Part shown: positions 1,557-57,354 of the stretch, piece after piece | How the letters are laid out: the number at the start of each line of letters is the position of its first letter | Numbering within the stretch: position 1 is the stretch's first letter | Source: Azolla caroliniana | Lineage: Eukaryota > Plantae > Polypodiophyta | Direction of reading: 5' to 3' | NCBI GenBank assembly: GCA_043228905.1 | Contig: JBHGNT010000015.1 | Span: 20,212,001 to 20,276,000 of the forward strand | DNA length: 64,000 bases | Translations under genes and position numbers: made by a program | Notes under the pieces: generated by a model | What the model saw: the letters and a program-made list of their open reading frames with translations, nothing else | Databases searched by the model: none | Told to the model about the DNA's origin: nothing

Positions 1557-3084
1557 GCACGCGCCATGATGCATGAGAAGCACATGGCGAATTTCTATTG
1601 GGCTGAAGCGGCATCCACGGTCGTCTATCTCATGTATCGATGCACCGCTAGTGGAGTGCATAAGCTAACTCCCTACGAGCTCCTTGTCAGAAGGAAGCCG
1701 ATCCTGTCGCACCTCAAGGTGTTCGGAAGCATTGCGAATGTACGCATCCTGAACGAAAATTGATTGAAGCCCGACGTGAAGTCAGAGAAATGTATTCTCG
1801 TAGGATAGTGGTCCGAGAAGAAGGCATACAAGTGCTATAACCCTTCGACTCAACCGGTTCAGGTGAGTTGAGACATAGTCTTTGACGAATCGACATCATG
1901 GTATAAGCCTGATTCTGCTCCACCTGACTTGACCGAGGAAGAGTTGAACGTCAACTCAGAGGAAGATATTTGGACAAGTTCTCTACCAAAGGACAATCCA
2001 AGCCCTCCTGAGCCTTCAAGCATTCCAAGCACGTTGCGGCCAAGTACGACCTTGGACAAAGGCAAAGGGAAGATGCCCGACTATGAAGTCAACCATCCCG
2101 ACGACAGTGATTCAGATGTATCGGTGCGCTCACTAGATAGTGAGTTTTGGTGTACCCATCATGTGGACACCCGGAGTAAAGAAGGCGCTCACATCGGCGG
2201 GCGAAAAACTTCGACATTCTTCTAGAGAGAAGAATCCTGTCACTCAGCTTGGTCGTAACAAGTGTGAAAAGAACAACGTGCGGAAGCCATAGAAAGGAGA
2301 ACGTAGGAAAACATAGGTTTAATGGAGAGCTTGGACACACACACAGTACGTGAGAGAGACAATACACACAACTCAATTAAAAAATAATACTCAGTTTGTA
2401 CATAGGATGTGCTTAGTGAGCACTTTTATACAAGTCCATACGGACTAACAGAAGTATTGACACGTACTTCAATGCTCATAAATGAGCTCTACACCAACTC
2501 CCAAAATATATTCCTACGCAGAATATCTTTCCAACGGGCTCGCGGTTTATGTACCACTACGGCTTCTCGTGTCATGATATGGCAAGACTCGAACCCATAA
2601 CCTTATGCTACATGGGTCAAGCTCTTACCATTAGACTATGAATTGTAATTTATAGGATATTATTTTCATTTATACTTTATCATAGAAAATTGATGTATAT
2701 TCCAGATCTCTCTGGAACATTCTAGAAGCTTCAGGATTATTCCTAAAAACACTATAAAAGGAGGCACAAGGCATTGTTTTGAACCAAATTGGTTCAACGC
2801 CAGTCTTAAGCCTCTTAGCCGCTTTGTACTTATCTTTCACATAATATATTAGCTGCTGTCATCATCTTTCTCTCTCTCTCATTCTCGCTATCTCTCTCTC
2901 TCCTCTTCTCACTTCCTCTCTCGGGAGTCTTACGCAGTCCCGTCCTCTTAGTACTAATAGTACTGCTCTTCTTTAGTACTAATTCCATCTCTGTTTTAGT
3001 ATTATTCCTGACAGTTTGAACCAATTTGCTCTCCTCCAGCCTACTTGTCACTCTCCCTGATCCTCCTACCCTTTTCCCTATACT

Positions 3085-4242
3085 ATGGCTATTGTTAGCG
3101 CCCAAGAATACCAATCTGTTTTCTCCGAGCTACAATGCCTAAAAGAAAAGTTTGTTGCCCTGGAACAAGAAAACCAACGGTTGATAGGGGATCTGCAACA
3201 AATCGCTCTAGAAAAACAACAAACGCAACAACAACATGGGGAGTTAGTGTTACGGGTACAACAACTCGAAGCAACGTTGCAACAACAAGGATCAAGTCCC
3301 CAAGGATTTCATAAAGAACCCAAGATTGGACTTCCTGTGAAATTTGATGGAACGCGATCGCAATTCCGGGGATTCCTTAATCAGGTACGCTTAGTCATCC
3401 AGATGCATCCTTCCTGATATCCCACTGATGCATCTTGAGTCGGCCTAATAGGCACGCTACTTAGCGGCTCAACCTTGCCATGGTTTGCTCTGCTTCTAGA
3501 AAAACAATTGCCCTTGCTTAATCACTTTGAAGATTTTATTGGTGAGTTTAAAGCCTGCTTTGGAGATACTGACAACATCAGGACAATGATCAACAAGATC
3601 CGAAGATTGCGTCAAGGCGATCGTCTAGCCTCTGCCTACGCGGCAGATTTCCGTCTACTCGTCTCAGATATCCCCTGGGATGATCAGGCCCTCATGGAGC
3701 AGTTTCGCTACGGCTTGCGCAACGATGTCAAAGACTTGCTTTTAACCTTCCCCGAAGAACCAAAGTCTCTTACGGAGGCAATCAGTCGAGCGGTCCGATG
3801 CGACAACCGCCTTTTCGAACGACGTTCGGAACGTCAGTTACAAATACCACGCTCTCGGCCGGAACCCACATACGCCTCAGTCACGGCTAAACCGTTTGCA
3901 CGCGATGTACCTCAAGCCAATATTCCGACACCGATGGAGATCGACACCATGCGTCGACGCGGCCCGTTATCGGAAGAAGAAAAGCAGCGACGACGTGCCA
4001 ATCGATTATGTCTTTATTGCGGTGGACCAGGGCATATTGCCATCAATTGTCCCCATAGGCCAAGAAGACAGGTAAATCAAATCATCACCTGTACTAAACC
4101 CAAGCCAATTCATCCCTTTGGAGTGTCTGATAGTATTAATAGTACTAATAGAGTGTTAGATAGTATTCATAGTACTAATAGCCCAAGTATCTCAAATAAA
4201 TTTGAAATCCTTAGTCAATTAGATGAAGAGTTAAACTATTGA
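3085..4242 (+). pseudogene. gypsy gag with in-frame stops near 3415 and 3436
   Basis: PVKFDGTR, PTPMEID and CLYCGGPGHIAINC zinc knuckle. Confidence 0.9.
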
Positions 4243-4310
4243 GTCCAGCCAAAATAGGAGCCGTTTGGTTGGACAACAGCCCTAGATCTGTACAGCCCAT
4301 TAGTGGTTCC
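4230..4310 (+). promoter_or_regulatory. -1 ribosomal frameshift signal (G TTA AAC + predicted H-type pseudoknot)
   Basis: pol is in the -1 frame of gag. Stem 1 4243-4253/4264-4274, stem 2 4257-4262/4305-4310. Conserved at 35656-35739 and 50270-50347 (-). Confidence 0.75.
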
Positions 4311-7300
4311 ATTCCTTCCAAGCAAGTTAGCAATGTGTTCCTAGCCCAAGTCATTGTTAGTACTAAAAGTACTCCCCCAGTACCCGTCCCAACACTTTTA
4401 GATTCCGGAGCTAATTCTTGTTTCATGGATCGAAATTTTGCCCAAGCTTCTCAGATATCCTTAAGAAAACTTCCTTGTCCCGCATCTGTAGTAGTCATTG
4501 ATGGTCGTCCCATTGCTTCCGGGAATATTGTAGAAGAATCAGAACCCATTCAAGTTGTCCTAGGTAGTTTTGTGTGTATAATATCATTTAATATAATTAG
4601 TAGTCCAGAGCATCCCATTGTCCTAGGATTACCTTGGTTTGAATTACATAATCCAGCCATAGATTGGAGAACAAGAGAAGTCCGATATCGACCACCCCAA
4701 GAATCAACTCACCGAGTTTCGACCATTTCACTCCATCAACTACGCGAAGAAGGACCCAAGGAGGCAGTGTTCCTATTTGCAATATCAGTACATCCTTCCA
4801 GCACTATTAAGAAGGACTCCTCAGTACAACTTCCGGCAAAATATCATCCTTATGCCGATGTATTTGACAAGGTAAAAGCCGGTACCCTTCCTCATCACTG
4901 TCCCTATGACTGTCCCATTGATTTACAACCAGGAACCGAGCCACCATGGGGACCAATTTACAACTTGTCACCTACCGAGTTAGAAGTCCTTCGAGCCTAC
5001 ATAGAGGAGAACTTGGCAAGCGGGTTCATCCATCATTCGAAATCTCTGGCCGGTGCACCCATCTTCTTTGTCAAGAAGAAAGATGGCTCACTTCGTCTCG
5101 TCGTTGATTACCGCGGATTGAATAAAGTCACCATCCGGAATAGGTATGCACTTCCTCTTATATCAAGTCTTTTAGAGCGAGTTAATGGTGCCAAGTTTTT
5201 TACTAAAATCGACCTACGAGGAGCGTATAACCTCGTGCGGATCCGATCGGGAGATGAATGGAAGACTGCCTTTCGCACGTGGTATGGGCATTTCAAGTAT
5301 ACTGTTATGTCGTTCGGCCTAACCAATGCACCCGCAGACTTCCAACACATGGCAAATGATATATTCAGAGACCTCTTGGATATCTGTTTGATCATCTATC
5401 TGGATGATCTATTGATTTATTGGAAGGCCCAAGAAGAGCACGATTCTCATGTACTATTAGTACTAAAGTGACTCCGCGAGAATGGTCTTTATGCCAAGCT
5501 AGAAAAATGTAGCTTTGACTGCAAGCAAGTGGAATTTCTAGGCTACGTCATCTCCTCAAAGGGCATCGCCATGGATCCAGCTAAAATCCAAATTGTACTA
5601 GAGTGGCAAATTCCACGGTCGGTACGAGATGTACAATGTTTTCTAGGTTTTGCTAACTTCTACCGTAAGTTTATACAGGATTACTTGAAGATTATTTTAC
5701 CTCTCACACAACTTACAAAGAAGGGCCAAGCATTTCTTTGGCCCATCGAAGCAAATATGGCTTTTCGGCATCTTAAGAAAGCCTTTACATCAGCACCGAT
5801 TCTAGCTCATGTGGATACAAGCAAACCATTCATCATGGAGGCCGACGCATCAGATTTCGCCCTCGGTAGCATCCTTTCTCAACAAGGAGATAAAGAAGAG
5901 TTGCATCCGGTGGCTTTCCATTCGCGCAAATTCGATGTCGCAGAAATCAACTACGAAATACATGGCAAGGAGTTATTAGCCATCGTGGATTCATTTGTGC
6001 AATGGTGGCATTTCTTAGAGGGCTCTCCATATCAGGTCATTGTCTTTAGCGATCATAAAAATCTTGCTTATTTTCAGAATGCTCATGTACTAAATCAACA
6101 GCAAGCTCGGTGGGCGCAATTCCTCACGCGTTTTGACTTCAAAATCACATATCGACCGGGGAACCAACAAGGAAAAGTAGATGCACTATCACGACGTTCA
6201 TATCTTGCACCTCGTCCTGGTGATGCAACATTTGATAATCAAAAGCAAGTAATCTTGGGACCAACACGATTGCACACGACGCAGATTTTTCACACCCCGA
6301 TGGATTCACGGATTACCGATGACATACGTGCAACCTTGAAGACGGATAGTTTTGCTCAAGACATCTTGGCGCACATTGATACTTCTCGGGCATCCTGTTC
6401 TCAGTCTGAACAACCAGGTATTGACTACCGACAATTCGAATATCATGATGGTTTGTTATTCTTTTAAAAGCGCATATATGTCCCCGATTGCTCCTGTCGC
6501 GTTCAAATCGTCCAGCATTGTCATGACACCCATACGACGGGACATTTCGGTAGTACTAAGATGTTGGAGCTAGTGCAACGATCTTTTTGGTGGCCCCACA
6601 TGCGCCGTTTTGTCGACGACTACGTTTGGACCTGTGATGTTTGCTACCGAGCAAAGATGCCACGACACCATCCATATGGCTTGTTGGAACCCTTACCGAT
6701 TCCAAGTAAGCCGTGGCAGTCTATTTGTCTTGATTTTATCACAGATCTGCCGGTCTCGAAAGGGTTTGATGCTATCCTAACTGTCGTCGATCGATATACG
6801 AAGATAGCACATTTTGTGCCGTGTACTAAAGCCATCACTAGCGAGGAAACCGCCGCCCTTGTTATGCGTGAGGTATTTCGGCATCATGGCCTCCCAAACA
6901 GTATCATCAGTGACCGAGGACCGCAATTTGTCTCCAAATTTTGGCAGCATCTCTTCAAGATGCTCAAGGTCTCCTGCAACCTCTCCTCCGACTACCATCT
7001 TCAGACCGACGGGCAGGCGGAATGAACAAAACAAACGCTGGAGCAATATCTCCGGTGTTTCCTGAGTTATCAACAGGACGATTGGGCCTAGATTCTCCAC
7101 TTTGCGGAGTTTGCGTATAATAATGCTATTCACTCCTCGACTCGGGTCTCCCCATTTTTCGCTTCTACCGGTTTCCATCCTCGCTGGTCGGTGATCGACA
7201 CCCCGGAGCTACATACCAACCCTCGTGCCGAGGATCATTTGGAGAGGCTACACAAGATCCAGATGGATCTCTCTACTCACCTTCGTCATGCTCAACACAT

Positions 7301-7530
7301 AGAAGACTTATGCGGATCGTCATCGGATTCTCTCCTCTTTTGCCATCGGAGATCGAGTATGGCTCTTACTTCGTCACATCAAGACTACTCGACCGTGCGA
7401 CAAGTTGGATTATCGACGACTCGGTCCCTTCCGTATTACGGGTAAGATTAATGATGTCACATTCCGCCTTGAGTACCCGGACAAACCCGGTCCGCAATCA
7501 GCACCGACTCGTTCCACTCGTCGTCTTTAA
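4230..7530 (+). pseudogene. gypsy pol (PR-RT-RH-IN), stops at ~5469, 6465 and 7023; chromodomain deleted near 7470
   Basis: LLDSGA, YLDD, DASDF, SDRG motifs. The sequence jumps from FRL to EYPDKPG compared with the intact relative at 32095. Confidence 0.9.
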
Positions 7531-8164
7531 GGGGGAGATAGTGTCATGATATGGCAAGACTCGAACCCATGAACTTATGCTACATGGGTCGAGCTCTTAC
7601 CATTAGACTATGAATTGTAATTTGTAAGATATTATTTTCATTTATGCTTTATCATAGAAAATTGATGTATATTCTAGATCTCTCTGGAACATTCTAGAAG
7701 CTTCAGGATTATTCCTAAAAACACTATAAAAGGAGGCACAAGGCATTGTTTTGAACCAAATTGGTTCAACGCCAGTCTTAAGCCTCTTAGCCGCTTTGTA
7801 CTTATCTTTCACATAATATATTAGCTGTTGTCATCATCTTTCTCTCTCTCTCTCATTCTCGCTATCTCTCTCTCTCCTCTTCTCACTTCCTCTCTCGGGA
7901 GTCTTACGCAGTCCCGTCCTCTTAGTACTAAGAGTACTGCTCTTCTTTAGTACTAATTCCATCTCTGTTTTAGTACTATTCCTGACATCTCGTTGCGCAC
8001 CGGTTTACGCACCTGGTTTACGCACTGGTCTGGCCTAACCGATCTGGTTCTCGTCTTGCACAACCGATCCGGCCAATGTTGAACTCGTATCTCAACATTC
8101 CCCCTCAAGCTCAACTTGAGGCTCTTCTGGTTCTTCCGGGTCACCGCTCCGGTTTCTTCTAACT

Positions 8165-19210: not shown

Positions 19211-20725
19211 TGTTACGGTCATGACCATATAATATCTTGTGGTAAGATTATACCATAGTATTCTATACACGTGGATAAAGTGTGAGGGTTAAACAAGAGT
19301 GTAAAGAAGGGAATGATTACTTTTAATCCTTGGGATTGAGACAACCCATTAAGGCCAAGTGTGAACTTGCCTGGGGGCCTTAGGTCTAGCTACCCTCATT
19401 TGACATATTATCGACTACATCGAGACTATATCCTCGTGGTGATCAACTCTTGAAGCGAGCATGCCAGTACGAGGTACGACTCGATGCCACGATGGTGGTA
19501 TGGGATGCCGATCAAGGTTTGAGTCCGTCTCGATCCCTTCGCTCGGGGGTGGGCGGGTGGATCGGCACCCTTCTTTCTCTCTCTCCTCTCTTATCTAGTT
19601 ATATTAGGATCATCTTTGACAATTGGATACCATGTATATATATGTGTTCTAACATAGATATGTTTATCACATGTATACGATCAAATACGTATACACGTGA
19701 TTACATATGTATATATTAAAGAATCGTTAACATAACATAGCCAACGAATGATGTAATCGAGATACATCATTGAGGCATATAGCCTCTATGCACACGAAAC
19801 ATCCAAAATAAGGGTGAACGTATACGCAATCGAGGTATTGACCTCTTACGTATACGACACAAATTGTATATCCTATATATAACAATTGAGGTATTGACCT
19901 CATACATATACGTAACATATGTAAGTGAATGTAATACGCAACCGAGGTATTGAAATCTTACGCATACAACACAAATCGTATATAAATATATAGCAATCGA
20001 GGTATTGACCTCATACGCATACATATGTACGTTTTATACAACCAATCGCTTACCACTACAACATAATTGAATCAATGAAAAAAGAAATCACATTTTGAGT
20101 ATACATGATTAGATTGGGAGAGGAAAGAATAGAAAAAGAAGAAGAAAGAGTTACCGACGTTTGCTTGTTAATGCTGTTTTGGATCAAGCTTGATCGCACA
20201 TCGATCGATCATCATCCAACAAAAAAAAACCATCAACAAATGAAACATTAGAAGAAAAGCTCTGATACCAACTGTTAGAGCTTGATCCTAATGTAAGCAT
20301 ATGATATGGAAATATAATATAACTAGATAAGAGAGGAGAGAGATAAAGAAGGGTGTTGATCCACCCGACCACCCCCGAGCAAAGGGATCGAGACAGACTC
20401 GAGCCTCGATTGGCATCCCATACCACCGTTGTGGCATTGAGTCATACATGATATTGGCACGCTCGCTTCAAGAGTTGATCACCACAAGGACATAGTCTCG
20501 ATGTAGTCAATAATGTGCCAAATGAGGGTAGCTAGGCCTCATATTTATAGCTAGACCTAAGGCCCCCGGGCAAGTTCACACTTGGCCTTAATGGGTTGTC
20601 TCAATCCCAGTGATTAAAAGTAATAATTCCCTTCTTTACACTCTCGTTTAACCCTCACACTATGGTATAATCTTATACTATGGTATAATCTTACCACGGG
20701 ATATTATATGGTCATGTCCGTAACA
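19211..20725 (-). mobile_element. Non-coding chromovirus derivative with inverted LTRs (19211-19612 on +; 20273-20725 on -), PBS 20259-20270 and part of the 5' leader
   Basis: The arms are reverse complements and the unit is flanked by ACAAG/ACAAG. LTR and leader resemble the element at 51524-63619. Confidence 0.9.
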
Positions 20726-28371: not shown

Positions 28372-28566
28372 TTACCCTAATGGTAAGATGTTACACTACA
28401 AACACTATGCCTTGGGTTCGAAACCCAATTATCTCACCTCTCTATTACATACTTCATACATATCTGATTCTCTTTTCAATTCGCTAGATGCCACTGTGGA
28501 AATGTAAATATTGAACCCATGACCTACTGGTCTCCATTGGTCGACCTTACCAACTGAGCTACATCC
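28372..28566. other. two convergent tRNA-derived (SINE-head-like) A/B-box units
   Basis: Plus unit: TACCCTAATGG 28373, GGTTCGAAACC 28415. Minus unit: TAGCTCAGTTGG 28561-28550, GGTTCAATA 28517-28509. No cloverleaf. Confidence 0.5.
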
Positions 28567-31555: not shown

Positions 31556-32094
31556 TGTCGTGACTCTTGAGTAGGAAGCAGAGAGAGAGCGATGGCGATA
31601 GAGATAACGATAACGATAGAGATGGCGAGAGCGGTAGAGATAGCGATAGTGATAGAAAGAGAGTGAAAGAGGGAGAGAGTGCGAGAGAGAGAAAAGTATA
31701 AGTGAGAGATAAGAAATGGGAATGCGATTATATTATGAGAAAGAAGATTACAAGGAGTAGGCTAAGGGCTAAAGACTGGTGTTGAACCGAATGAGTTGTG
31801 ATGAGTATATGGACTCTTATTTATAGGCCCTTATGGAGTATTCTAGAATGTTCTAGAATATTTTAGATATTTATGAATAATAATAATAATAAATATAATC
31901 ATGAAATATTCAAGAACATTCTAGAATAATCTAGAATGTTCTAAATATCTCGTAATAACTAAACATATAATTATTATGATTACATCTCACATATGTTATT
32001 ACAATGGTTAAAGTACAATATGTAAACCAAGAGGTTATGGGTTCGATTCCTGGTTCGCCAAGATGAATGTCATGATAAGCCAAGATGTATGTCT

Positions 32095-35000
32095 TCATGA
32101 CATTATCCCCCCTTTTCGATGACGAGTTGCACGAGTCGGAAGAAAAGAGTTCAGACTTGGTTTATGAGGATATTGGTTGTGAAATGCAACAACCATGTCG
32201 GAGGCATTGGCAAGATGTTCGGCAGGCTCCCATGTTCGATCATTAGGTGTATAGCCTAACCAATCAACCAAGTAGTATAGTTTGTTGCGAATGATCTTGG
32301 AGTCGAGGATAGCGGCAACCTCATATTCAGAGCCATTGGAAACGTCAATTGGAGGTGGGGGAGGTGTAACACGACCCGGAATAGAGCTCGTTGTGTAAGG
32401 CTCCAAAAGTGAAACATGGAAGACCGGGTGAAGACGCATATGAGGAGGAAGATCAAGTCGAAATGTCACATCATTGATCTTACCACTTATGACATATGGG
32501 CCAAAACGTTGATAATCCAATTTGTAGCAAGGTCGGGTCGTTTTAATGCTACCTTGTAAGAGCCATACACGATCGCCTACTTGAAATGTAGTCGATGAAT
32601 CACGCCGATGACGGTCAACAATCTTCTTTTGAGTGTTTTGGGCTTCACATAAATGATGCAAAAGCATATCCTGAACTTCTTGGAGTCGAGTGAGCCGATC
32701 TTCAGCAGCTGGGTTTTTTGGGAGTTCAGGATGTTCAAGCATCGTCCAACGAGGATGGTACCCAATGTTTGCAAAAAATGGGGAATATCCAGTAGAAGAA
32801 TGCTCGGAGTTGTTATAAGCAAATTCTGCCAAAGGTAGTAAATCCACCCAATCATCTTGTTGATAGTTGACAAAACAACGTAGATATTGCTCGACTGTTT
32901 GGTTGGTGCGCTCACTCTGCCCATTAGTCTCTGGATGGTAGCCGGAAGAGAGTTTACAAGAAGTATGTAAGAGTCTGAACATGTGCCGCCAAAATTTCGA
33001 GATGAATTGGGGACCCCGATCACTGATAATATCATCTGGAAGACCATGATGGCGAAACACCTCCCGCATGAGTAAATCAGTTGTCTCTTGACTAGTAATG
33101 GTCTTTGTGCATGGAAGGAAATGTGCCATCTTCGTAAAACGATCGACAACCGTGAGAATCGAATCAAATCCCTTGGAAGGTGGAAGATCCGTAATAAAGT
33201 CCAAGGAAATAGATTTCCATGGGCCCTCCGGAATAGGCATTGGCTGTAATAAGCCATATGGATGATGTCGAGGCTTTTTTGATCGGCAACATGTATCACA
33301 GCTACGAACATAATCCGTAACAAAATGGCGAAGCCGTGGCCACCAATATCGGCGAGAAATCAACTCAAAAGTCTTGTGGATGCCGAACTGTCCCGCCATT
33401 GGTGTGTCATGACATTGTTGCATGACTTTGAGTCGAGAAGGACCGTCAGGCACATACAAGAGAGTTTGTCGAAAAAGTAACCCATCATGCCAACTAAACT
33501 GGGTGTAGTCTAGACGAGGATTTTGAGTTTGGGAGCTAGATGCACGATTTGGGATAATATGGCTCAAAACCTCTTGGGCGAACGCATCAGTCGCAATCTG
33601 CTCACGAATGGAATCAAGAAGCCTTGAATCTCCCGGTGTGTTGATGGTATGCATTGCCATTATTCGTAGACGATCAGGACCTAAGAGGATTTGCTTTTGG
33701 CTTTCAAATGCGGCCTCTCCAGGTTGAAGTTCCATATACGAACGTCTAGATAAAGCATCTGCTTTTCCTTGTTGCATCCCAGGGCGATATAGAATTACAA
33801 AATCGAAACGAGTTAAGAACTGCGCCCAACGAGCTTGTCGTCGATTCAAGACTCGAGCACTTTGAAAGTATGTTAGATTTTTATGATCATTGTAGACAAT
33901 AATCTGCTGAGAAGAACCCTCCAGAAAATGACGCCATTGTTGAAAAGAATCCACAATGGCAAGAAGCTCTTTGTCGTGAATCTCATAGTTGATTTCTGCG
34001 GCTTCAAATTTTCGTGAGTGAAAAGCCACCGGGTGCAGTTCACCATCATCACCAATTTGGGATAGTACACTTCCGAGTGCGAAATCCGATGCATCAGCTT
34101 CAAGTATAAAGCGCCTCATTGGATCGACATGGATTAAGATTGGTGCGGATGTACATGCTTGCTTTAAACCCTCAAATGCAGAGTTCGCATCTATACTCCA
34201 TACAAATGATCGATTCTTGTGCGTCAGTTGAGTGAGGGGCAACACAATTTTTGAATAGTCTTTGATGAACTTGCGATAAAAGTTTGCGAACCCCAAAAAA
34301 CATTGCACATCTCGCACAGACTGTGGTGTTTGCCAATCCAAAATTGTTTGAACCTTTGATGGATCCATAGAGATGCCATTTGAAGAGACTATGTACCCCA
34401 AAAACTCCACTTGACGTTGGTCGAAACTACACTTCTCCAATTTTGCATAGAGACCATACTCTCGTAGCCGTTGCAAAACTTGGCGAACATGTATATCATG
34501 TTCTTCTTGAGTTTTTGAGTAGATCAAGATATCATCCAGGTAAACAATGATGAAGATATCGAGAAAGTCTCGAAAAATATCATTCGCCATATGTTGGAAG
34601 ACTGCTGGTGCATTCGTGAGGCCAAAAGGCATCACTGTGTACTCAAAATGACCATAGCGAGTGCGGAACGCCGTCTTCCATTCATCCCCAGGACGAATTC
34701 GAACAAGGTTGTAGGCACCTCGAAGATCTAACTTCGTGAAATACTTTGCTTCACTGAGGCGTTCTAGAAGGCTTGAGATCAATGGGAGAGCATATCGGTT
34801 TCTAACGGTCACTTTATTCAAGCCTCGATAATCCACGACCATACGAAGCGTACCATCTTTCTTCTTAACGAAAAAGATGGGTGCACCAACAGGAGATTTT
34901 GAATGTTGGATAAAACCATTTGCCAAGTTCTCATTGATATATTCTCGAAGAACCTCTAACTCCGTGGGCGAAAGATTATAAATTGGTCCCCATGGAGGCT

Positions 35001-35739
35001 CTTTTCCTGGCTGCAAATCAATTGGGCAATCATATGGTCGATGCTCTGGTAGTCTATTAGCCTTCACCTTATCGAACACATCGGAGAATTCTATGTACTT
35101 CTTTGGTAGTTGGACCCCCAATTCTTGTGAGCTAGATGAGGGAGTTGCTAAAACCGCAAATACCATCATGTCTTCCTTTCTTCCATCCTCTCGTAATTGA
35201 TGTATAGAGATTGTTGAAATTGTGGGGGATCCTAGATCCTTAGTTGGAGCTTCAAGAGACTTGGATTGTACGGTGACCTCTTCAATAGTTCTTTTTCTCC
35301 AATCAATGGTTGGGTTATGTAACTCAAACCAAGGAAGACCAAGAACTAGAGAGTGCTCCGGACTACTAATGATGTTAAATGAGATGACACTAGCCAAATT
35401 ACCTAGGACTACACGAATTGGTTCAGACTCTTCGACTATATCTCCTGATGCTATAGGGCGACCATCGATGACTCCTACAGCTACTGGGTTTGGGAGTTTT
35501 TTCAAGATGATGTTTTGAGTCAATGCAAACTCGCGATCCATGAAACAAGAATTGGCTCCGGAATCTAGGAGGGCAGAGGCTAGGGCGCGATGACCTGTAG
35601 ATGTGCTAAGCTCGACTTGTGCAGAAAAAACTCTACTAACTTGATTTGATGAAATGGAACCACAACTAGGTACTGACTCTACATAACTAGGATGGTCCAA
35701 CCAAATGGCTCCTATTTTGGCCGGACTTATTCGTTTAAC
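32095..35739 (-). CDS. pol: gypsy Pol (PR-RT-RH-IN-chromodomain), open, probably expressed by -1 frameshift
   Basis: 1201-aa ORF with LLDSGA, YLDD, DASDF, D-D-E integrase, GPY and YLVDWLGY..TWEP. The second His of the HHCC motif is Gln. Confidence 0.93.
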   Translation of the reverse strand, partial: VKRISPAKIGAIWLDHPSYVESVPSCGSISSNQVSRVFSAQVELSTSTGHRALASALLDSGANSCFMDREFALTQNIILKKLPNPVAVGVIDGRPIASGDIVEESEPIRVVLGNLASVISFNIISSPEHSLVLGLPWFELHNPTIDWRKRTIEEVTVQSKSLEAPTKDLGSPTISTISIHQLREDGRKEDMMVFAVLATPSSSSQELGVQLPKKYIEFSDVFDKVKANRLPEHRPYDCPIDLQPGKEPPWGPIYNLSPTELEVLREYINENLANGFIQHSKSPVGAPIFFVKKKDGTLRMVVDYRGLNKVTVRNRYALPLISSLLERLSEAKYFTKLDLRGAYNLVRIRPGDEWKTAFRTRYGHFEYTVMPFGLTNAPAVFQHMANDIFRDFLDIFIIVYLDDILIYSKTQEEHDIHVRQVLQRLREYGLYAKLEKCSFDQRQVEFLGYIVSSNGISMDPSKVQTILDWQTPQSVRDVQCFLGFANFYRKFIKDYSKIVLPLTQLTHKNRSFVWSIDANSAFEGLKQACTSAPILIHVDPMRRFILEADASDFALGSVLSQIGDDGELHPVAFHSRKFEAAEINYEIHDKELLAIVDSFQQWRHFLEGSSQQIIVYNDHKNLTYFQSARVLNRRQARWAQFLTRFDFVILYRPGMQQGKADALSRRSYMELQPGEAAFESQKQILLGPDRLRIMAMHTINTPGDSRLLDSIREQIATDAFAQEVLSHIIPNRASSSQTQNPRLDYTQFSWHDGLLFRQTLLYVPDGPSRLKVMQQCHDTPMAGQFGIHKTFELISRRYWWPRLRHFVTDYVRSCDTCCRSKKPRHHPYGLLQPMPIPEGPWKSISLDFITDLPPSKGFDSILTVVDRFTKMAHFLPCTKTITSQETTDLLMREVFRHHGLPDDIISDRGPQFISKFWRHMFRLLHTSCKLSSGYHPETNGQSERTNQTVEQYLRCFVNYQQDDWVDLLPLAEFAYNNSEHSSTGYSPFFANIGYHPRWTMLEHPELPKNPAAEDRLTRLQEVQDMLLHHLCEAQNTQKKIVDRHRRDSSTTFQVGDRVWLLQGSIKTTRPCYKLDYQRFGPYVISGKINDVTFRLDLPPHMRLHPVFHVSLLEPYTTSSIPGRVTPPPPPIDVSNGSEYEVAAILDSKIIRNKLYYLVDWLGYTPNDRTWEPAEHLANASDMVVAFHNQYPHKPSLNSFLPTRATRHRKGGIMS

Positions 35740-36854
35740 ACATCCTCTAATTGGCTCAAGACATCAAATCTATTCTCATGGCATGGGCTAGTAGGCTTAG
35801 TACTTAAGTTATTAGAAGTGATAGTAGAACTTGATGTAGGGTTGTCATGTGCACTTACTTGGTAAACTTGACGCCTGGGTTTATGTGGACAATTCACAGC
35901 TATATGTCCTGGACCACCACAGTAGAGGCATAGGCGATGCGCCCGACATCGTTGTTTCTCAGCATCTGATAAGGGCCCTCGACGTTGTGTCGACTCTATT
36001 TCCATCGGAGTGGGACCATCCCTCGTAACGGGTCTAGAACCTTGTGGCGGTGTGGCGACTATAGAAGCGTATGTCTGTTCCGGTTGGCGGCGTAACATTT
36101 GTTGACGTTCAGAACGTCGCTCAAATAGGCGATTATCACATCGCACAGCTCGGCTAATAGCTTCAGTAAGAGACTTTGGATCTTCATGGAAAGTAAGAAG
36201 AAGATCTTTGACATCGTTACGCAAACCCTGACGGAATTGATCCATTAAGGCTGCCTCATCCCAAGGGATGTCGCATGCCAAGAGACGGAAATCTGCGGCA
36301 TAAGCTGAAGCGGGACGATCTCCTTGTCGGAGTCTTCGAATCTTGTTTATTGCAGTCCTAGTGCTATCCGTATCTCCAAAACTAGCTTGAAACTCCTTAA
36401 CGAATGCCTCGAAATCCTCCAGTAATGGTGATTTCTTCTCAAGAAGTGGTGCAAACCATGCTAACGCTGTACCGCTTAGCAAGGTTCCTATTAATCCCAC
36501 ACGGGCAGCATCAGTTGGATACCGATTGGGATGTAACTGAATCACCAAACGAACTTGATTCAGGAAACCTCGAAAGAGAGATCTGGTACCATCAAACTTG
36601 GCAGGGAGGCTAATCTTTGGTTCCCTTGGGGAGTTTTGAACCCCCGCCGCTTGTTCTCGTAATGTTAATATAGTAGCCTCAAGTTGATGAACCCGTTGTG
36701 ATAACTCCTCATATTGATGAGCTTTCTCAGTACTGACTTGTTGAAGATCCCCGAGTAGCCTTTGATTTTCTTGCTCTAATGCCACAAACTTAGTGGTGAG
36801 CATATCGAGCTCCGAAAGGACACGCATATACTCTTGCTTGCTGACCGACTCCAT
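35727..36854 (-). CDS. gag: gypsy Gag, 375 aa, open
   Basis: Coiled-coil N-terminus, PAKFDGTR, CLYCGGPGHIAVNC. Confidence 0.93.
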   Translation of the reverse strand: MESVSKQEYMRVLSELDMLTTKFVALEQENQRLLGDLQQVSTEKAHQYEELSQRVHQLEATILTLREQAAGVQNSPREPKISLPAKFDGTRSLFRGFLNQVRLVIQLHPNRYPTDAARVGLIGTLLSGTALAWFAPLLEKKSPLLEDFEAFVKEFQASFGDTDSTRTAINKIRRLRQGDRPASAYAADFRLLACDIPWDEAALMDQFRQGLRNDVKDLLLTFHEDPKSLTEAISRAVRCDNRLFERRSERQQMLRRQPEQTYASIVATPPQGSRPVTRDGPTPMEIESTQRRGPLSDAEKQRCRAHRLCLYCGGPGHIAVNCPHKPRRQVYQVSAHDNPTSSSTITSNNLSTKPTSPCHENRFDVLSQLEDVLNE

Positions 36855-37787
36855 AACCGCGGGGGAAAAAGAAAGAAGGATAAAGAAGAAAGCTTGCTAG
36901 AGTTATTGGAGAAAGGGAAAAGAAATATTCGGTTCAAACTGTCGTGATTCTTGAGTAGGAAGCAGAGAGAGAGAGCGATGGCGATAGAGATAACGATAAC
37001 GATAGAGATGGCGAGAGCGGTAGAGATAGCGATAGTGATAGAAAGAGAGTGAAAGAGGGAGAGAGTGCGAGAGAGAGAAAAGTATAAGTGAGAGATAAGA
37101 AATGGGAATGCGATTATATTATGAGAAAGAAGAATACAAGGAGTAGGCTAAGGGCTAAAGACTGGTGTTGAACCGAATGAGTTGTGATGAGTGTATGGAC
37201 TCTTATTTATAGGCCCTTATGGAGTATTCTAGAATGTTCTAGAATATTTTAGATATTTATGAATAATAATAATAATAAATATAATCATGAAATATTCAAG
37301 AACATTCTAGAATAATCTAGAATGTTCTAAATATCTCGTAATAACTAAACATATAATTATTATGATTACATCTCACATATGTTATTACAATGGTTAAAGT
37401 ACAATATGTAAACCAAGAGGTTATGGGTTCGATTCCTGGTTCGCCAAGATGAATGTCATGATAAGCCAAGATGAGTTGTGATGAGTGTATGGACTCTTAT
37501 TTATAGGCCCTTATGGAGTATTCTAGAATGTTCTAGAATATTTTAGATATTTATGAATAATAATAATAATAAATATAATCATGAAATATTCAAGAACATT
37601 CTAGAATAATCTAGAATGTTCTAAATATCTCGTAATAACTAAACATATAATTATTATGATTACATCTCACATATGTTATTACAATGGTTAAAGTACAATA
37701 TGTAAACCAAGAGGTTATGGGTTCGATTCCTGGTTCGCCAAGATGAATGTCATGATAAGCCAAGATGTATGTCTTCATGACACTTCT

Positions 37788-40845: not shown

Positions 40846-42035
40846 AGGGGGAGTTTGTTGGGATTACGGTCCCTCCGGATGGGATGGTCGGATGTCCGGG
40901 AATCGGGAATGAAGACCCCGGTTACGGAGCCGGATGATGAAGACCCCGGTTACGGAGCCGGATGATGAAGACCCCGGTTACGGAGCCGGATGACGAATGT
41001 ACCCGGAGAGAGATCCGGATGCGGGGACATATTTGTGAATATGTTTGCCAAGAGCCCTTGAGGCTATATTTGTAAATAGCCCGAAAGTCATATGTGTATA
41101 AATATGACTTAGGGCAAACAGTTTATTGGTTGTTGCTCATTTTATGTTTTCAGCCGAGAGAGTGAAGTGAGAGCAGCCGAGAGAGAGAGAGAGAAAGGAA
41201 GGGGTCGACGCCTCTGTGTATTACCGCCGCCTGTGGCGAAGACAGTGAGCTCAAGGTTGTTGCCTTGTAGCTTCACCATTGTACATCTCTGTGTATAGTG
41301 ATAGTTGGAGTTTGATGACTCCCGTGGTTTTTCCCATTTAGGGTTTTCCACGTAAAACACCCTGTGTACTCTCCTCTCTATTCTACTTCGTGCATTTTGT
41401 ATTTCCTGTTTTCTGTGAATTTATCCTATTACTCGGTGGTGGCTGAGCACTGTTTTACAACATAACGCGTGGATTCCGCAAACCGCGCACACTACGCAAT
41501 AACGCGTGGATTACGCAACCGCGCAACAAAGCCGCGAAGAGCTGATCTACCGCGCAAAGCTGCGAACAAAGAGGCAAGCCAAAGCGCAGACTTCGCAACT
41601 ACACACAACGCAAGCTGGAGCACATATTCCGCAACTCCGCATAAATGCGAGTCGACGCGGACTCCGGAATGCGAGTCGAAGCGGATTTCAGATACCGTCT
41701 GAAACCGAGCTGGCTTGAGCTTGAGGGGGCATGTTGAGAATCAAGCTCAACTTGGTCTAGTGTGTGAACTCACCTTGAGAGTGAATAGACACTCCAACGG
41801 TCAAGAGTCACCATTATGTCACCTCTTTGTATTCTAGCATTTAGTATGAGTCATAGAATCATATTCTATGACACATAACTTATGAGCTTTCACATTCCCC
41901 ATGCTCCATGAGTCTTGTAGTTAATGAAGAGAGAGGGTGACTACATAAAGCACCCTCCTCCCACCTTGTACATAGGTACCGAGTCTTTCTCCTTTGTTAA
42001 TATACTTTTACCTTGCGTATTCTCTGTTTCTTATT

Positions 42036-42084
<49 letters not shown>

Positions 42085-42736
42085 TATGCGAGCTATGTAG
42101 CGAAGCTACGATAGCGATGAGCCGGTTCTTGGTCGTCGGCATGGAGCACAACACACGATCACGATGAGGCGAATGGGCTAGATCAAGCTACCAAATCGCT
42201 CTGATACCATGTAAAGAATCAAGAGATGGATTCTTGTGAAGCGGAAGAGATATGAGTTATGTGTGTGTATGAGAGAGAGAGAGTGAATGAGTCAAGGAAT
42301 AAGACACAGAGAATACACAAGGTAAAAGTATATTAACAAAGGAGAAAGACTCGGCACCTATGTACAAGGTGGGAGGAGGGTGCTTTATGTAGTCACCCTC
42401 TCTCTTCATTAACTACAAGACTCATGGAGCATGGGGAATGTGAAAGCTCATAAGTTATGTGTCATATAATATGATTCTATGACTCATACTAAATGCTAGA
42501 ATACAAAGAGGTGACTCTTGACCGTTGGAGTGTCTATTCACTCTCAAGGTGAGTTCACACACTAGACCAAGTTGAGCTTGATTCTCAATAGGGTGCAAGC
42601 AAGGCTTGAACCTTGCACCTCTATGATAAGAGACGAATTAACTTACCACTAAAGCAACGCTTTAGATTGTGTATATTTTCTCTTCATATTCAATATTTCG
42701 TACGAAACGAACATATAAAAACCGTGGGCACAAAAA

Positions 42737-42870
42737 CCATGGTTTTAGCCCATGGTTTTAGCCCGTGGTTTTAGCACCCCTGTGGTCTTAGCCCATGGTT
42801 TCTACCCGTGGTTTTAGCCCATGGTTTCAGCCCACGGTTTTAGCCCGTGGGTTTAGCCCATGGTTTTTGC
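42737..42870 (+). repeat. ~10 x 13-bp CATGGTTTTAGCC array directly upstream of the LTR TATA box (42882)
   Basis: Read directly from the sequence. Confidence 0.85.
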
Positions 42871-45800
42871 ATGGAGAGACCTATAAAAGCCTATAGTGGG
42901 GCTTGTGTAAGGGCAAGTGATGTAAGTAAAAAAAAAACTTGTAATCAAAGATCTAAGTTATCCTAATGGTGATGTATCTTGTCTCATAAAACTAAAGTCA
43001 AGGGTTCAATCTCTATCTCAATCTCTTCATCCATCTATCTATCTTCAATACTTTCTCGCTTACGTTGTTAAAAACATTGAATCCTTCCGATCCAGGACCC
43101 CGGTGGTCCCGCTTCATTTCACGAACACGCGAGGATTTCCTCGACATCTTACTTGGTGAATGAGGCGATAGGGAGGATCTCAAGTACAACGATGGCTTCG
43201 ATAAGCAAAACTCAAGGAGAGGAATTAACGAAAGGTATGGTGTCCGTAGTGGAATACATGTTGAAGGTGAGAGATGGAGAAGCTTTAATCGACAAAGCTA
43301 TTGATCGTATGGTCGAGATAGTTGGACGATTTGGTGGCAAGAACATCATGAATTTCCTTGCTACCTATCGGAACAAGATGTAGCAGAGGGATGTCAACAA
43401 TCTCAAACAAATTTCTAGCTTCAAAAGTGTGGTGGAACGAGGTATCCGCAAGCATGTCATGGAGATCCAAAACGAGCACACAACTTGGGTGGAGTTCGAA
43501 AAGGCGCTTCTCGCTGAATACATGCTTGAAGATGCGTCACAGATGACTTGACATACGCTAATGATGTGGATCGAGAAGAAAGGGAAGAATATGTGTGTGT
43601 CTGGAGCATATGCCGAATTCGACTAGAAGTACAACCGACTTCCAAGTGTAGATCAACGAGTTCTTGATGGAGATAAAGTCCTACTATTCCTAAAGGCAGT
43701 GGATGTGAAAGATCAGCGAGAATTGGGAAACCTTTTGGAGGACGAAACACAACCAAATTGTTTGGTAGCGGACTGGGCGGCGTTGAAGAAGACTTGTAGC
43801 CATCTTGATAAGCGTCGACAATGGCAAGAGGAAACTGATATGGAGAATCCACAATCGTGGAGGCGGAAGGCGCCTATGACGATCGAGCCTAGCAAGCCGA
43901 TCAACAATTTCGACAAGAAAGTGATGGAAGAATCCATAATTGAAGAGATCTCCAAGAAGTTTGAAGCGGTATCGTTGGCCAACTTAGGTCGATGTGGGCC
44001 CAATGGAAAAGAAGCGTATAGATGTGTGTGGTGCGACAGCTTCGAGCACTCGCGAAGGGAGTGCACTGACTTGCAAGATGCGATTCGCAAGAACGTCGTC
44101 TATTTGGACGGCAACATGATTCATTCGAGCGAGACTCGGAAGCCACTACGAGTGAACTTCGAAAGACGCGGGCTGAAAAAGATCGTGCACTATGCTGCAT
44201 TGGCCAGGATATGAGTTGGAAGAGAGAATCTAAAGACGATCAAGCCGGGAGTTGGGTTTTGGCAAAATCGATTTGAAGGATCTACAACTTGCTGATCGGA
44301 ATGTGCGATGAGTTACCGGATGGTCGGATCCAGTCAACGATAACACAAGCTTTGCAGAGGTTGTGTATGACAACTATGAAGCTCTTGTCGAAGAGAAGAG
44401 GAAAAGAACTGATGAAGAAGATGACACATCAAAGCGTCACAATACGAGGAATGAACGGAAAGAAGGACAAGCCCAACCTACGCCACGAAAAGAGATAGGA
44501 GAAACAAGCATGAAGCCCGGTGGATCGAGCCAACCTTCTCGGATTGAAGTCGATGAATCTGTGAAGAAAGGAAAAGAACGAGTGGTGCCGCTAAGGTTGG
44601 ACATAGAACAAACAACCGACTTGTGGAAGGTCCTTGAGGAGAAGGTTTTAGACAGTCATGTCGACCTTACTTTGAGAGAGCTACTTGGGATCGCTAAGAA
44701 GGAGTTCCACGATACTATTGTGGAATTGATTAAGCGGAAGAGGCAACAAGCAGATGAAGAGGAGGTGAAAACAAGTGCCATAACTATGGCAAGATCGGAA
44801 GAGGAGAAAGAAGAAGAAGTGATGGTGGACAACCATTACTCTCAGCCTCATTGGGCAAGAGCGACAACGGAGACGCCGGTGAAGATCAGGGAGAAGAAAG
44901 AGACTGTGGTAGCTTTGATTGACCATGGTTCGGAGATTAACCTCATGTCGACTCAGGTCTACAAAAAGGGAAGATGGCCGATTAATACAAACCACAGATG
45001 GAAGATTCGAGCGGCAACGAGGGCCACGGAGGACTTGTATGGAGCTTGTCCCAATGTTAAAGTCATAATTGGGGATGTGGAGATGGATCAACACTTCTTC
45101 GTGCAAGAATCGGCTTTGCATCCTGTCATCCTGGGTCAACTGTATATCACATCATCTCGGTTGGAGACCAAGGTGTTCAATAATGGAGCAGCCTTCACGC
45201 GAATCAAGAGTCTTGACAATCAAAGATTTGTTCAATTCCTAACAGTGCGAGCTAATCATGAAAGAAATCGAGATAGTCTTGGAGGTGAATCACCAGATTT
45301 TTAGAGCGGAATATTGAAGCATGGGGCACAAATAGTCCGATCGATCGCAAGTGCCCACAAGGGAGTAGACCGCGTGGATTGCGAGGAGAAGCAACATATG
45401 TCACACCTAGTGGCACATGTAAACTAGTACTACCCGACAAGAAGGACAAGCGTCAGATACAAGACTTCGAGAAGATGCAGAAAGAAGAAAGCATAATAGA
45501 AAAAGAAGAGTTCGTGACTCATATTATGGAAGAAGCCTCATTTAACGACACCATCAGCAAAATTGAGGATGTCGTGGACTTGAGCTATCTACACGATCAT
45601 CGTGTGATTTCGGTTAGCTCCATCAACATGTACGCTATCATCGATGAATATCATCGAAACATCTTGATGAAGGAAGCTGACATCAACACAAAATATAAAA
45701 CATTGGATAGGAAGATCAAGCCAATTGCGGTTCCGCTACCGGAAGATAGCTGGCAAAAGATGAAGGAAGTCGCTAACGATCCAAGCTTAAGAGATCCAAA

Positions 45801-46393: not shown

Positions 46394-49300
46394 TGTCAGG
46401 AACAGTACTGAGACAGAGAAGGAATTAGTACTAAACGAAGGATTAGTACTATGAGAGGTGTAGAACTTCTTCGAGAGAAGGAAGGAGTGAGCAAGACGGA
46501 GAGGAAGAGAGAGAGAGTGATGATAAGAAAGATATGTATTATATGAAGAGAATATACAATGGTGGCTAAAAGGCTTAAGAATGGCGTTGAACCAATTTGG
46601 TTCAACATAATGCCTAGTGCCCTCTTTTATAGTGTTTTCAAGAGTAATCCTGAAGCTTCTAGAATGTTCCAGAGAAATTTGGAATATACACTAATTTCCT
46701 ATAATAAAATGTAAATGAAAATAATATTCTACGTATTACAATAGATGGTCTAATGGTCAAGAGCTCGACCCATATAACCTAAGGTCATGGGTTCGAGTCT
46801 TGCCATATCATGACACTATCCCCCCTTTAAAACGACGAGTGTCACGAGTCATCTTTGATTGAGGACCCGGTTTGTGTGGATATTGACGATGGAAGTCTTC
46901 AAGAAGAGCACGAGCGTTGGTCACATTCTCGATCGGTTCCCAAGTACGATCGCTGGGACTATAGCCTAGCCAATCGACTAGATAGTAGAGCTTGTTGCAA
47001 ACAATCTTGGAATCAAGAATGGCGGAAACCTCGTACTCCGGCCCATCTTCAAGCTCGATCGGGGTTGGAGGTTGGATAAGACGTCCTGGGATGGTGCTCT
47101 CGTGGTAGGGTTCAAGGAGAGAACTATGAAACACCGGATGTATCCGAAGTTGAGGAGGTAGATCGAGACGAAAAGCGACATCATTAATCTGTCCAATAAT
47201 ACGGAAAGGACCTAATCGCCGATAATCCAACTTCTCACATGGGCAAGTAGTCTTGATGTGTCGTTGTAGCAGCCACACCCGATCACCAATATTAAAACTG
47301 GATGGAAGTCGATGACGATCCGCGTAGACCTTGTGTGTTTGTTGAGCTTGCTGGAGATGAGTAGATAAATCCGCTTGTATCTTGCGTAACCGCTCCAAAC
47401 GATCCTCCGCGCACGGATTTGTGGACACCTCTGGGGTTTCAAGTATACTCCACCATGGGTGACATCCCGTATAAGCATAAAATGGCGTAACTTTAGTGGA
47501 TGCGTGGATAGAGTTGTTATAGGCAAATTCGGCGAAGTGGAGAATATCTGCCCAGTCATCCTGATGATAACTGAGAAAGCACCGCAGATACTGCTCCAGC
47601 GTTTGATTTGTTCGTTCAGCTTGGCCGTCGGTTTGTGGGTGGTAGCCGAAGGAGAGGTTACAAGAGACCTTGAGCATGTTAAAAAGGTGCTTCCAAAATT
47701 TTGACACGAACTGGGGTCCACGGTCGCTGATGATACTATCGGGAAGTCCATGATGCCGACATACTTCACGCATGACAATTTCGGCAGTGTCTTCACTGGA
47801 GATCTCCTTAGTACATGGCAAGAAATGAGCCATCTTCGTGTATCGATCGACCACCGTTAGAATCGCATTGAACCCCTTAGAGACTGGAAGATCTGTGATG
47901 AAGTCTAGAGCAATGGATTGCCACGGCTTGCTTGGAATTGGTAATGGTTCTAATAAACCATATGGATGATGCCTTGGCATTTTCGCTCTGCAACATGTAT
48001 CACAAGTCCGAACAAAATCCTCGACAAATTGTCGCATACAGGGCCACCAGAATGATCGTTGTACTAAATGTAATGTTTTAGTACTACCAAAATGCCCAGC
48101 TGTATATGTGTCATGGCAGTTTTGAACTACTCGAAGGCGGCAAGAACCATTAGGAACATACAAAATTTCTTTAAAGAAGAGTAATCCATCATGGTATTTG
48201 AATTGCCGATAGTCCGTACCTGGTGGTTGCGACTATGAACACGACGCTCGAGAGGGATCAATTTGTGCTAGTATAGCTTGGGCGAACGCATCTGTCTTCA
48301 AGTCTTCACGTATGGTATCGATAACGCGGGAATCCATGGGCATGTCAAAGATCTCTGTTGCTTGTAGTCGTGCCGGTCCCAAGATGACTTGTTTTTGGTT
48401 ATCGAAAGCTGGCTCGCCGGGACGGGGTGCTAGATACGAACGTCGTGATAATGCATCTGCCTTCCCTTGGTGCTTCCCCGGACGATATGTAATTTTGAAG
48501 TCGAAACGCGTGAGGAAGTGGGCCCACCGAGCTTGACGTCGATTCAACACACGAGCATCCTGAAAGTAGGCAAGATTCTTGTGATCACTAAATACGGTGA
48601 CTGGATGAGAGGATCCCTCCAGAAAATGCCTCCATTGCATAAAAGAATCCACTATTGCCAATAGCTCCTTATCATGAATTTCGTAGTTAATTTCGACGGC
48701 GTCAAACTTGCGTGAGTGAAAAGCCACTGGATGTAGCTTCTCATCATTCCCCTGTTGTGATAGAATGCTCCCCAATGCAAAATCCGATGCGTCAGCTTCG
48801 ATAATGAATGCTTTTTCCGGATCGACATGAGCTAGAATTGGAGCCGATGTAAATGCCTTTTTAAGACTCTCGAAATCCATGTCCGTTTCTTCAGACCAGA
48901 TGAACGGTTGTCCCTTCCTGGTAAGTTGTGTGAGAGGTAGAACGATCTTTGAGTAATCTTGTATGAACTTCCGGTAAAAATTGGAAAAGCCTAGGAAGCA
49001 TTGCACATCCCGCACCGAACGCAGAGTCTGCCATTCTACCACCGTTTTGACCTTAGCTGGGTCCATGGAGATGCCTTCTGACGAAATGATGTAGCCGAGA
49101 AATTCCACTTGGTTGCACCCGAAACTACATTTTTCCAGCTTTGCATACAGACCATGTTCTCGAAGTCGTTTTAGTACTGATAGTACATGAGAATCATGTT
49201 CTTCTTGGGTCTTTGAATAAACCAATAGATCATCCAAATAGATGATCAAACAATCATCCAATAGATCTCGGAATATATCATTAGCCATGTGCTGGAAGAC

Positions 49301-50818: not shown

Positions 50819-51113
50819 TGATAAGAAAGATATGTATTATATGAAGAGAATATACAATGGTGGCTAAAAGGCTTAAGACTGGCGTTAAACCAATTTGGTT
50901 CAACATAATGCCTAGTGCCCTCTTTTATAGTGTTTTCAGGAGTAATCCTGAAGCTTCTAGAATGTTCTAGAGAAATCTAGAATATACACTAATTTCCTAT
51001 AATAAAATGTAAATGAAAATAATATCCTACGTATTACAATAGATGGTCTAATGGTCAAGAGCTCGACCCATATAACCTAAGGTCATGGGTTCGAGCCTTG
51101 CCATATCACGACA
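46394..51113 (-). mobile_element. Tcn1-like chromovirus; 3' LTR 46394-46815, truncated 5' LTR ~50681-51113; PBS and most of gag deleted
   Basis: TSD CTCGG at 46389-46393 and 51114-51118. The LTR is homologous to 2570-3013. Confidence 0.95.
46808..50347 (-). pseudogene. gypsy pol (PR-RT-RH, stop at 48233, IN-chromodomain)
   Basis: ORFs 48233-50308 and 46808-48163 are in the same frame, separated by one TAG. Confidence 0.92.
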
Positions 51114-53002: not shown

Positions 53003-53040
<38 letters not shown>

Positions 53041-53204
53041 GTTGCTTCCGGTGTGCTTCTGGGATGCCCCGGAAATGGTGAAGCACGACTTCCTACGCTC
53101 CATCACTCCCTAGTCCAAGACCCCCGTGGTCCCGCCTTTCTCCACGCACGCGCGTAACAACGCGACATATTTGGTGAACCTAACGTGAAAGGTGGCAAGG
53201 GAGG

Positions 53205-55510: not shown

Positions 55511-55836
55511 ATGGGCGTAAGGATGTCCGGTCCTACGAGACTCCGGCAGTTCGGCCAACGTGCCAACATGAGACCAAGAGAGAAGGTTGGTGGCGGCGGG
55601 AAACGGGACCCGACTACGCAGAAGACACGAGGAGAGTCTGGGAGGGACTCAAACAAAAGACACCCGAATTTTGGCAAGCATAGAAACGGAGCCCGGTCCT
55701 ATGGGACCCTCACACCGAGCCGAAGACTCCGGCAGTTCGGCCAACGCGGCAACATGAGACCGAGAGAGAAGGTTGGTGGCGGCAGGGAACGGGACCCGAC
55801 GACACGAGGTTTCGGAAGGAGCCGGTAGGGGCAAAC

Positions 55837-57317: not shown

Positions 57318-57354
<37 letters not shown>

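Follow-up and report, generated by a model that had tools for sequence, protein, structure and literature searches.

An antisense tRNA-type A and B box pair at the U3 tips of putative Tcn1-type chromoviruses: a probable Pol III/TFIIIC element kept by selection

Why would LTRs with a predicted Pol II promoter of their own carry, at the outer tip of U3 and in antisense, a pair of boxes like those inside a tRNA gene? The preliminary description of the window (the whole 64-kb stretch of DNA analysed here) had reported such a pair in the first LTR of the element now called E1, and it is present there, with the A box at 2638-2628, a spacer of 32 nt and the B box at 2595-2586. The recurrences claimed at 7610-7558 (-), 46746-46799 (+) and 51044-51097 (+) were recovered as well, and in a second family, for which a B box ending at 32050 had been described, the module was confirmed at 31997-32050 (+). 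Two further modules, absent from the earlier description, lie at 37383-37436 and 37677-37730.

The window consists of nested plant LTR retrotransposons, among them three insertions of one chromovirus clade, E1 on the plus strand and E2 and E3 on the minus strand, each with TG...CA ends and a 5-bp target site duplication (TSD). The two LTRs of a pair are 97.7% (E1), 95.9% (E2) and 99.4% (E3) identical. Reverse transcriptase (RT), RNase H, integrase and chromodomain were found in E2 and E3, and E1 has decayed. The features are:

2570..3013, plus strand: E1 5' LTR, TGTCA...TGACA, TSD TCTCG, 97.7% identity with its own 3' LTR
2628..2638, minus strand: E1 A box TAGTCTAATGG (tRNA positions 8-19)
2585..2595, minus strand: E1 B box GGTTCGAGTCT, at tRNA positions 52-62, separated from the A box by 32 nt
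2595-2586, minus strand: the same B box read as GGTTCGAGTC, with 16 nt between it and the LTR end (2570)
2579..2631: imperfect inverted repeat, seen only in the E1/E2 lineage, in which positions 15-36 pair with 48-68 as a rod hairpin
2639..2700, minus strand: stretch of 84% A+T upstream of the A box, with CAA right before the A box; predicted TFIIIB seat and Pol III start
2752..2759, plus strand: TATA-like box, predicted Pol II promoter
2785..2797, plus strand: predicted start of R, complementary to the primer binding site (PBS), self-primer
3016..3028, plus strand: E1 PBS, 13-nt complement of 2785-2797, of the Tf1 self-priming type and not a TGG-type tRNA site
7529..7541, plus strand: E1 polypurine tract (PPT)
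7542..7987, plus strand: E1 3' LTR, with A+B module at 7610-7557 (-)
46746..46800, plus strand: A+B module of the E2 3' LTR (LTR 46815-46394 (-), TSD CCGAG), spacing 33 nt
51044..51098, plus strand: A+B module of the E2 5' LTR, B box GGTTCGAGCC; the LTR starts at 51113, U5 end and PBS deleted
31997..32050, plus strand: A+B module of the E3 3' LTR (LTR 32102-31556 (-), TSD AGAAG), A box TATTACAATGG, spacing 32 nt
37383..37436, plus strand: A+B module of the E3 5' LTR, inner U3 copy of a 294-nt tandem duplication
37677..37730, plus strand: A+B module of the E3 5' LTR, outer U3 copy (LTR 37782-36940)
32095..35763, minus strand: E3 pol frame with RT, RNase H, integrase, SH3 and chromodomain

The chromodomain (PF00385) of E2 and E3 has its aromatic residues Y, W and Y visible, and the PBS complement, 13 nt long in E1 and 11 nt in E3, lies about 30 nt below the TATA box, in agreement with the signature by which PMC6317226 describes self-priming in Tcn1. 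By chromodomain and self-priming PBS, the clade of E1, E2 and E3 is provisionally assigned as a Tcn1-type chromovirus. The aromatic chromodomain, predicted self-priming, TG...CA ends, 5-bp TSD and occurrence in non-seed plants are features in common with the published Tcn1 clade (PMC6317226, PMC2864245), which in plants is known only from mosses and club-mosses according to PMC6317226. The named hits, at 41-45%, came from Closterium, Microbotryum and vertebrates; those of a neighbouring gypsy element in the window were from Riccia and Adiantum. The restriction of Tcn1 to mosses and club-mosses and the Riccia and Adiantum relatives make a non-seed plant the likely host. A role of the module as primer at the PBS was considered and rejected, since it is the beginning of R to which the PBS is complementary. 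In the E3 5' LTR the U3 duplication (37177-37782) is perfect, ends at the predicted start site and gives two modules and two TATA boxes; a similar U3 duplication occurs in a metagenome locus, L020. At the left end of the window lies an E2-like integrase fragment (1-1547) to which an inverted U3 tip of 18 nt (1539-1556) is joined through a 9-nt microhomology, as if PPT-primed plus-strand synthesis had switched template within the hairpin arm.

The pattern ATGG-N32/33-GGTTCRANYC has 7 matches in the window, against 0.03 expected and no more than 2 in 100 shuffles. They fall one to each U3 tip, the duplicated E3 U3 supplying two, and they are not independent events since only three insertions of two lineages are involved. 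In all tips the module is antisense to gag-pol. The DNA upstream of the A box is 79-84% A+T, and a CAA near the A box, at +1 to +3, is present in most tips of the E1/E2 lineage (lineage A) and is not retained in the E3 lineage (lineage B). In plant tRNA genes the CAA lies earlier, between -7 and -3 relative to the mature end (PMC3082873). No B box was found in the other LTR families of the window (E4, 19211-19606, copia, 52407-53167); the module is therefore not required by every element.

An independent sample was obtained by scanning metagenome contigs with the PPT and the first 8 LTR bases, the boxes lying outside the query. The scan yielded 49 loci, namely 29 clade tips, recognised by a pol end 1-3 nt before the tip (24) or by LTR likeness (5), 4 distant gypsy loci and 16 unrelated ones. 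The B-box region was present in all 29 clade tips and both boxes in 25; the A box was missing from L006 and L018, cut before it, and from L015 and L049, which are rearranged and count as one insertion because rearrangement and flank are common to both. Twenty-five loci were aligned with 5 window tips, excluding the cut loci and L024 and L028 (tip duplicates of L014 and L012). With the rearranged pair also excluded from the statistics, the aligned tips comprised 21 of lineage A and 7 of lineage B. Behind the pol of ten distantly related gypsy loci, which share 32-42% pol identity and in several cases have a cut LTR, no antisense box was found. In viral collections the R-region pattern had 0 matches and the PPT pattern 35, none with pol, and protein scans gave 2, 0 and 6 loci; a scan of prokaryote genomes gave no match. 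The family is very abundant: in each of four runs, which carry four different organism labels, 3,195-5,377 contigs align to a single LTR. For this reason it could be a source of numerous TFIIIC sites or small RNAs in these genomes. As minor observations, L034 has a decayed second copy of the U3 tip directly upstream of the PPT region (878-968), and a search for a Myb ORF gave a single, unnamed match.

Comparison of the boxes with the adjacent U3, proposed in the preliminary description as a test, could be made with this alignment, and the boxes were the more conserved both between lineages and within the E3 lineage. Ten positions that we take to be invariant in tRNA (8, 14, 18, 19, 53-56, 58 and 61, box consensus and numbering likewise being assumed) were fixed before the comparison, the other 44 positions in 8-62 serving as reference. 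Only 12 of 280 cells at the ten positions departed from the tRNA-type consensus. Identity between lineages A and B was 0.94 at the ten positions and 0.55 at the 44 others (p = 8e-5), and within lineage B 1.00 and 0.68 (p = 1e-4), in statistics that treat positions as independent, though they are not, and with the deep comparison being a single split. Within lineage A the advantage of the boxes was small (0.90 vs 0.79, p = 0.05), because the hairpin described below constrains the spacer too, so that the earlier claim of conserved boxes is clear between lineages and within lineage B and holds by a narrow margin in lineage A. Box positions that are free to vary did so between lineages (positions 12, 13 and 59 were 0.17, 0.29 and 0.15 identical), position 10 was T in 7/7 lineage B tips, and seven non-box positions (20, 35, 38, 40, 46, 47 and 51) were conserved as much as the boxes. 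Looser forms of the A and B boxes are given in PMC4267658.

The divergence against which the boxes have been kept is considerable. Between lineages A and B pol is 65-71% identical (E2 and E3: 71% and 65%) and 60-73% of four-fold sites differ (60% and 73%), synonymous sites being close to saturation. Between E3 and L007, L036, L025 and L016 the spacer differs by 44, 36, 28 and 8% and four-fold sites by 37, 20, 13 and 8%, respectively, with 0/10 invariant positions differing in each. On a rough tree, parsimony placed 0.3 internal changes per site at invariant positions, 1.0 in the spacer and 1.6 upstream; the ratio of changes on internal to terminal branches, on the same poor tree, was alike for boxes and other positions (3:6 vs 52:85, p = 1). 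The distance between the boxes, 32 nt in 15 tips and 33 nt in 13 (28/28 aligned intact tips), differs mostly by one base at D-loop position 20a, and the tail to the LTR terminus has six lengths in the same tips (14, 15, 20, 21, 30 and 52 nt). Variants were also read from about 1750-1860 contigs per run aligned to the E2 tip, in which shares of contig depth are crude. Among the variants listed, none fell at positions 15-20 and none was an indel, and the only B box variant above 6% was C56T at the CpG, with 10% (X1) and 8% (X12) of depth. The 5' half of the A box was variable in X12 (T8G 22%, G10A 33% and A14G 23% of depth), and G10A had 17% in X1. As judged from the aligned DNA, the conservation of the boxes at fixed spacing demonstrates purifying selection on the outward A+B pair, which lies about 115 nt from the TATA box with a stretch of 80% A+T between them.

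That the stems of a tRNA are not kept, as had been stated earlier, is true of the cloverleaf: in lineage A 51% of its cells pair, 29% in the anticodon stem, with no covariation. ARAGORN predicted 0 tRNA genes in the window and none at the 95% threshold in the 30 tips, and Rfam gave none; a functional tRNA was therefore rejected. Relaxed ARAGORN calls were inconsistent in anticodon, so the donor tRNA cannot be named. The earlier proposal that boxes rather than a tRNA fold are kept, in the manner of a tRNA-derived type 2 promoter, is supported by the box conservation together with the lost cloverleaf. In the E1/E2 lineage, however, the same stretch forms another, long hairpin.

The U3-tip module is probably a genuine Pol III/TFIIIC element under selection. 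More tentatively, and with somewhat less than an even chance, it is a captured tRNA or SINE-head promoter that acts at the DNA level, by TFIIIC loading, open chromatin or a barrier. The A and B boxes would work as an outward type 2 RNA polymerase III promoter, TFIIIC would bind them, and TFIIIB would load onto the A+T-rich stretch behind them. This would produce a nucleosome-poor zone or barrier between the flanking heterochromatin and the Pol II promoter 110-120 nt further in. The divergent Pol III/Pol II arrangement would shield the element promoter from flanking silencing or read-through, its outward orientation keeping Pol III out of the Pol II promoter. tRNA genes are found where nucleosomes are sparse, TFIIIC takes part in organising chromatin (PMC11346459), and the moss chromovirus RLG1 is transcribed despite its location in heterochromatic islands (PMC7466625). 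As methylation impairs TFIIIC binding (PMC11346459) and the B box has a CpG, the majority of copies in the genome may have no activity, with selection working through those that do. A DNA-level role is favoured by the would-be RNA not being conserved across lineages, rod and terminator both varying; against it, the copy in the 3' LTR would stand head-on to the element's own transcript. In the available text of the literature examined, no barrier activity of tDNAs in plants is reported. The module offers a testable answer to how chromodomain retrotransposons, which are thought to target heterochromatin, still get transcribed.

The A box retained at tRNA spacing suggests real transcription, and this would fit equally well with a compact Pol III gene whose product, a 60-105 nt antisense RNA with a hairpin in lineage A, either supplies small-RNA silencing or diverts it as a decoy, or else base-pairs with the PPT and U3 tip of the element's RNA. 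Such a gene is the main rival reading and is rather unlikely. The lineage A rod is about 55 nt long, with about 20 pairs between positions 15-36 and 48-68 and the B box in its 3' arm; 90% of its cells pair, against 24-50% in slid controls, and 13 cells have double-sided changes (reached in 1 of 500 shuffles). The folding z is -4.5 and -7.3 for the two E1 tips and below -3 in 12/21 lineage A tips, vs 0/7 in lineage B, where the rod is absent. Most of the double changes are at one pair (26-59), along one subgroup split, and the folding strand is ambiguous, with 17 G-U vs 27 A-C cells. Quasi-palindromes can moreover be perfected by template switching without selection. The possible terminators are similarly divided. 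One lineage A subgroup has T4-5 right behind the B box, which would give a unit of about 60-63 nt, and in 7/7 lineage B tips a T4 run is first met just past the PPT complement, at a distance of 10 nt from the 3' LTR. In lineage A the first such run lies inside the LTR, next to the B box, in 10/21 tips, 10-63 nt beyond in 5 and not within 300 nt in 6, the last including the E1 3' LTR, E2 and three loci. As the length, end and fold of any RNA thus differ among tips, the shared unit is the boxes.

A combination of the two, in which outward Pol III units bracket the coding region as TFIIIC barriers and the unit of one lineage is also a hairpin gene of pre-miRNA size, is unlikely. If true, it would make the family a plant retrotransposon counterpart of the foamy-virus U3 Pol III genes and would mean that thousands of TFIIIC sites have been planted across the host genome.

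Barriers formed by tDNAs and TFIIIC (PMC11346459), and ETC sites, are known from host chromosomes of yeasts and animals, and in the literature examined we know of no case built into the LTR of a retrotransposon. The module resembles them in having boxes that possibly bind TFIIIC beside a Pol II promoter. The Pol III miRNA genes of foamy virus (PMC3993851) and BLV (PMC4267658) share with the clade A and B boxes, an autonomous LTR element and a hairpin of pre-miRNA size, and those of foamy virus are located in U3 (PMC3993851), like the module. The viral genes are proven by RNA and mutation and require a terminator at the hairpin base (PMC3993851, PMC4267658), whereas in the clade the hairpin is confined to lineage A and terminators vary. 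In BLV the B boxes are behind the terminator (PMC4267658), and in the clade the B box is in the 3' arm of the rod.

Among plant elements, the preliminary description had drawn a parallel with Cassandra, which is apt for the presence of a Pol III promoter within plant LTRs (PMC10886601, PMC12786077); the Cassandra promoter is, unlike that of the clade, 5S-derived and of type 1, makes the element's own RNA, and belongs to non-autonomous elements. Closer are the Helenus TRIMs (TRIMp3; Kojima 2024, PMC10886601), which have tRNA-derived LTR sequence with conserved boxes A and B and no working tRNA, and of which one family is found in a non-seed plant, Selaginella. Helenus elements are non-autonomous, shorter than about 1.3 kb and tRNA-primed, with the Selaginella LTR boxes in sense (PMC10886601), whereas the boxes of the clade are antisense at the U3 tip of autonomous self-priming elements with a separate TATA promoter. 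Membership of TRIMp3 (Helenus/Cassandra/Ajax) was rejected, as the elements are 5-6 kb long with gag-pol and the boxes are antisense. It has been argued that autonomous partners need Pol II and are unlikely to have Helenus-type LTRs (PMC10886601). For autonomous elements an outward, selected Pol III promoter would be something new, the described plant LTR cases being miniature, non-autonomous and in sense. The accessible Tcn1 literature does not mention a Pol III element ('polymerase III' has 0 matches in the available text of PMC2864245), and none was found for Tcn1 or other autonomous plant LTRs in the literature, most subscription journals and Repbase reports aside. The feature may have been noticed before, as 'not a few LTRs' are said to hold part of a tRNA (PMC10886601).

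That statement, made of LTRs in Repbase, also agrees with the module being a passenger, a relic SINE or tRNA head in the ancestral LTR that is functionless now. Four extra A+B units occur in the window outside the clade LTRs, at 28373 (+), 28561 (-), 42656 (-) and 42959 (+), found with a tip profile and a relaxed pattern (11 matches in 64 kb vs 0.44 expected), and from them tRNA/SINE-like heads appear to be common in the genome. Three of the four have spacers like lineage A (p = 0.003 vs shuffles), a likeness that may reflect only common tRNA ancestry. With changes of 13-44% in the spacer and at synonymous sites, however, neutral decay would not have left the invariant positions untouched, nor would it be expected to hold the spacing fixed beside six tail lengths, and a functionless passenger is quite improbable. 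The extra units have more to say about origin: the donor of the module is likely to have been a dispersed tRNA-derived repeat. Two separate captures of a tRNA/SINE head are less likely than a single ancestral one, because place and orientation match and because the A box of L033 is of the lineage B type while its body is that of lineage A.

Two of the extra units, 28373-28429 (+) and 28561-28506 (-), are convergent in unannotated DNA and are possible SINE heads, the second with a full 12-nt A box. The other two belong to a non-chromovirus gypsy LTR region (42593-43100), one antisense near its probable left end (42656-42603) and one in sense below a TATA box (42959-43009), with a T-loop-like stretch at the expected PBS.

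The module might instead be a signal for reverse transcription or integration by the PPT and att site, in which a hairpin or protein site is selected and the boxes ride along. Its start 14-52 nt from the terminus is in line with this, as are the ability of the sense strand to form the rod as well (8/21 lineage A tips with z below -3) and the aberrant copy at 1539-1556, in which integrase runs into 18 nt of U3 tip. For the full set of 30 tips RNAalifold also pairs positions 46-52 with the terminal repeat, a helix with a double change in only 1/7 pairs. In both lineages, nevertheless, it is the Pol III box positions that are conserved, and the rod is missing from lineage B, which leaves a signal of this kind with a low probability. 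That the boxes are a landing pad, attracting elements that insert upstream of Pol III genes, which Ty3 and Tj1 target, is very improbable: LTR breakpoints are scattered among the 29 loci (33, 44, 59, 114, 187 and 192) without a common distance to the boxes, 0/7 window tips have an insertion behind the A box, and a landing pad would be a by-product with no reason for conservation.

Other LTR structures were observed in the window. At 41733-42588 two copia-type LTR copies meet head to head and form an inverted repeat of 329 nt; one follows a PPT, the other precedes an iMet-type PBS. The LTRs of the E4 family at 19211-20725 form an inverted pair around a non-coding internal piece. An element at 52407-57659, nested in E4, has LTRs of 760-790 nt ending in TCACGACA like those of E3, no Pfam domain, and 120-nt tandem repeats.
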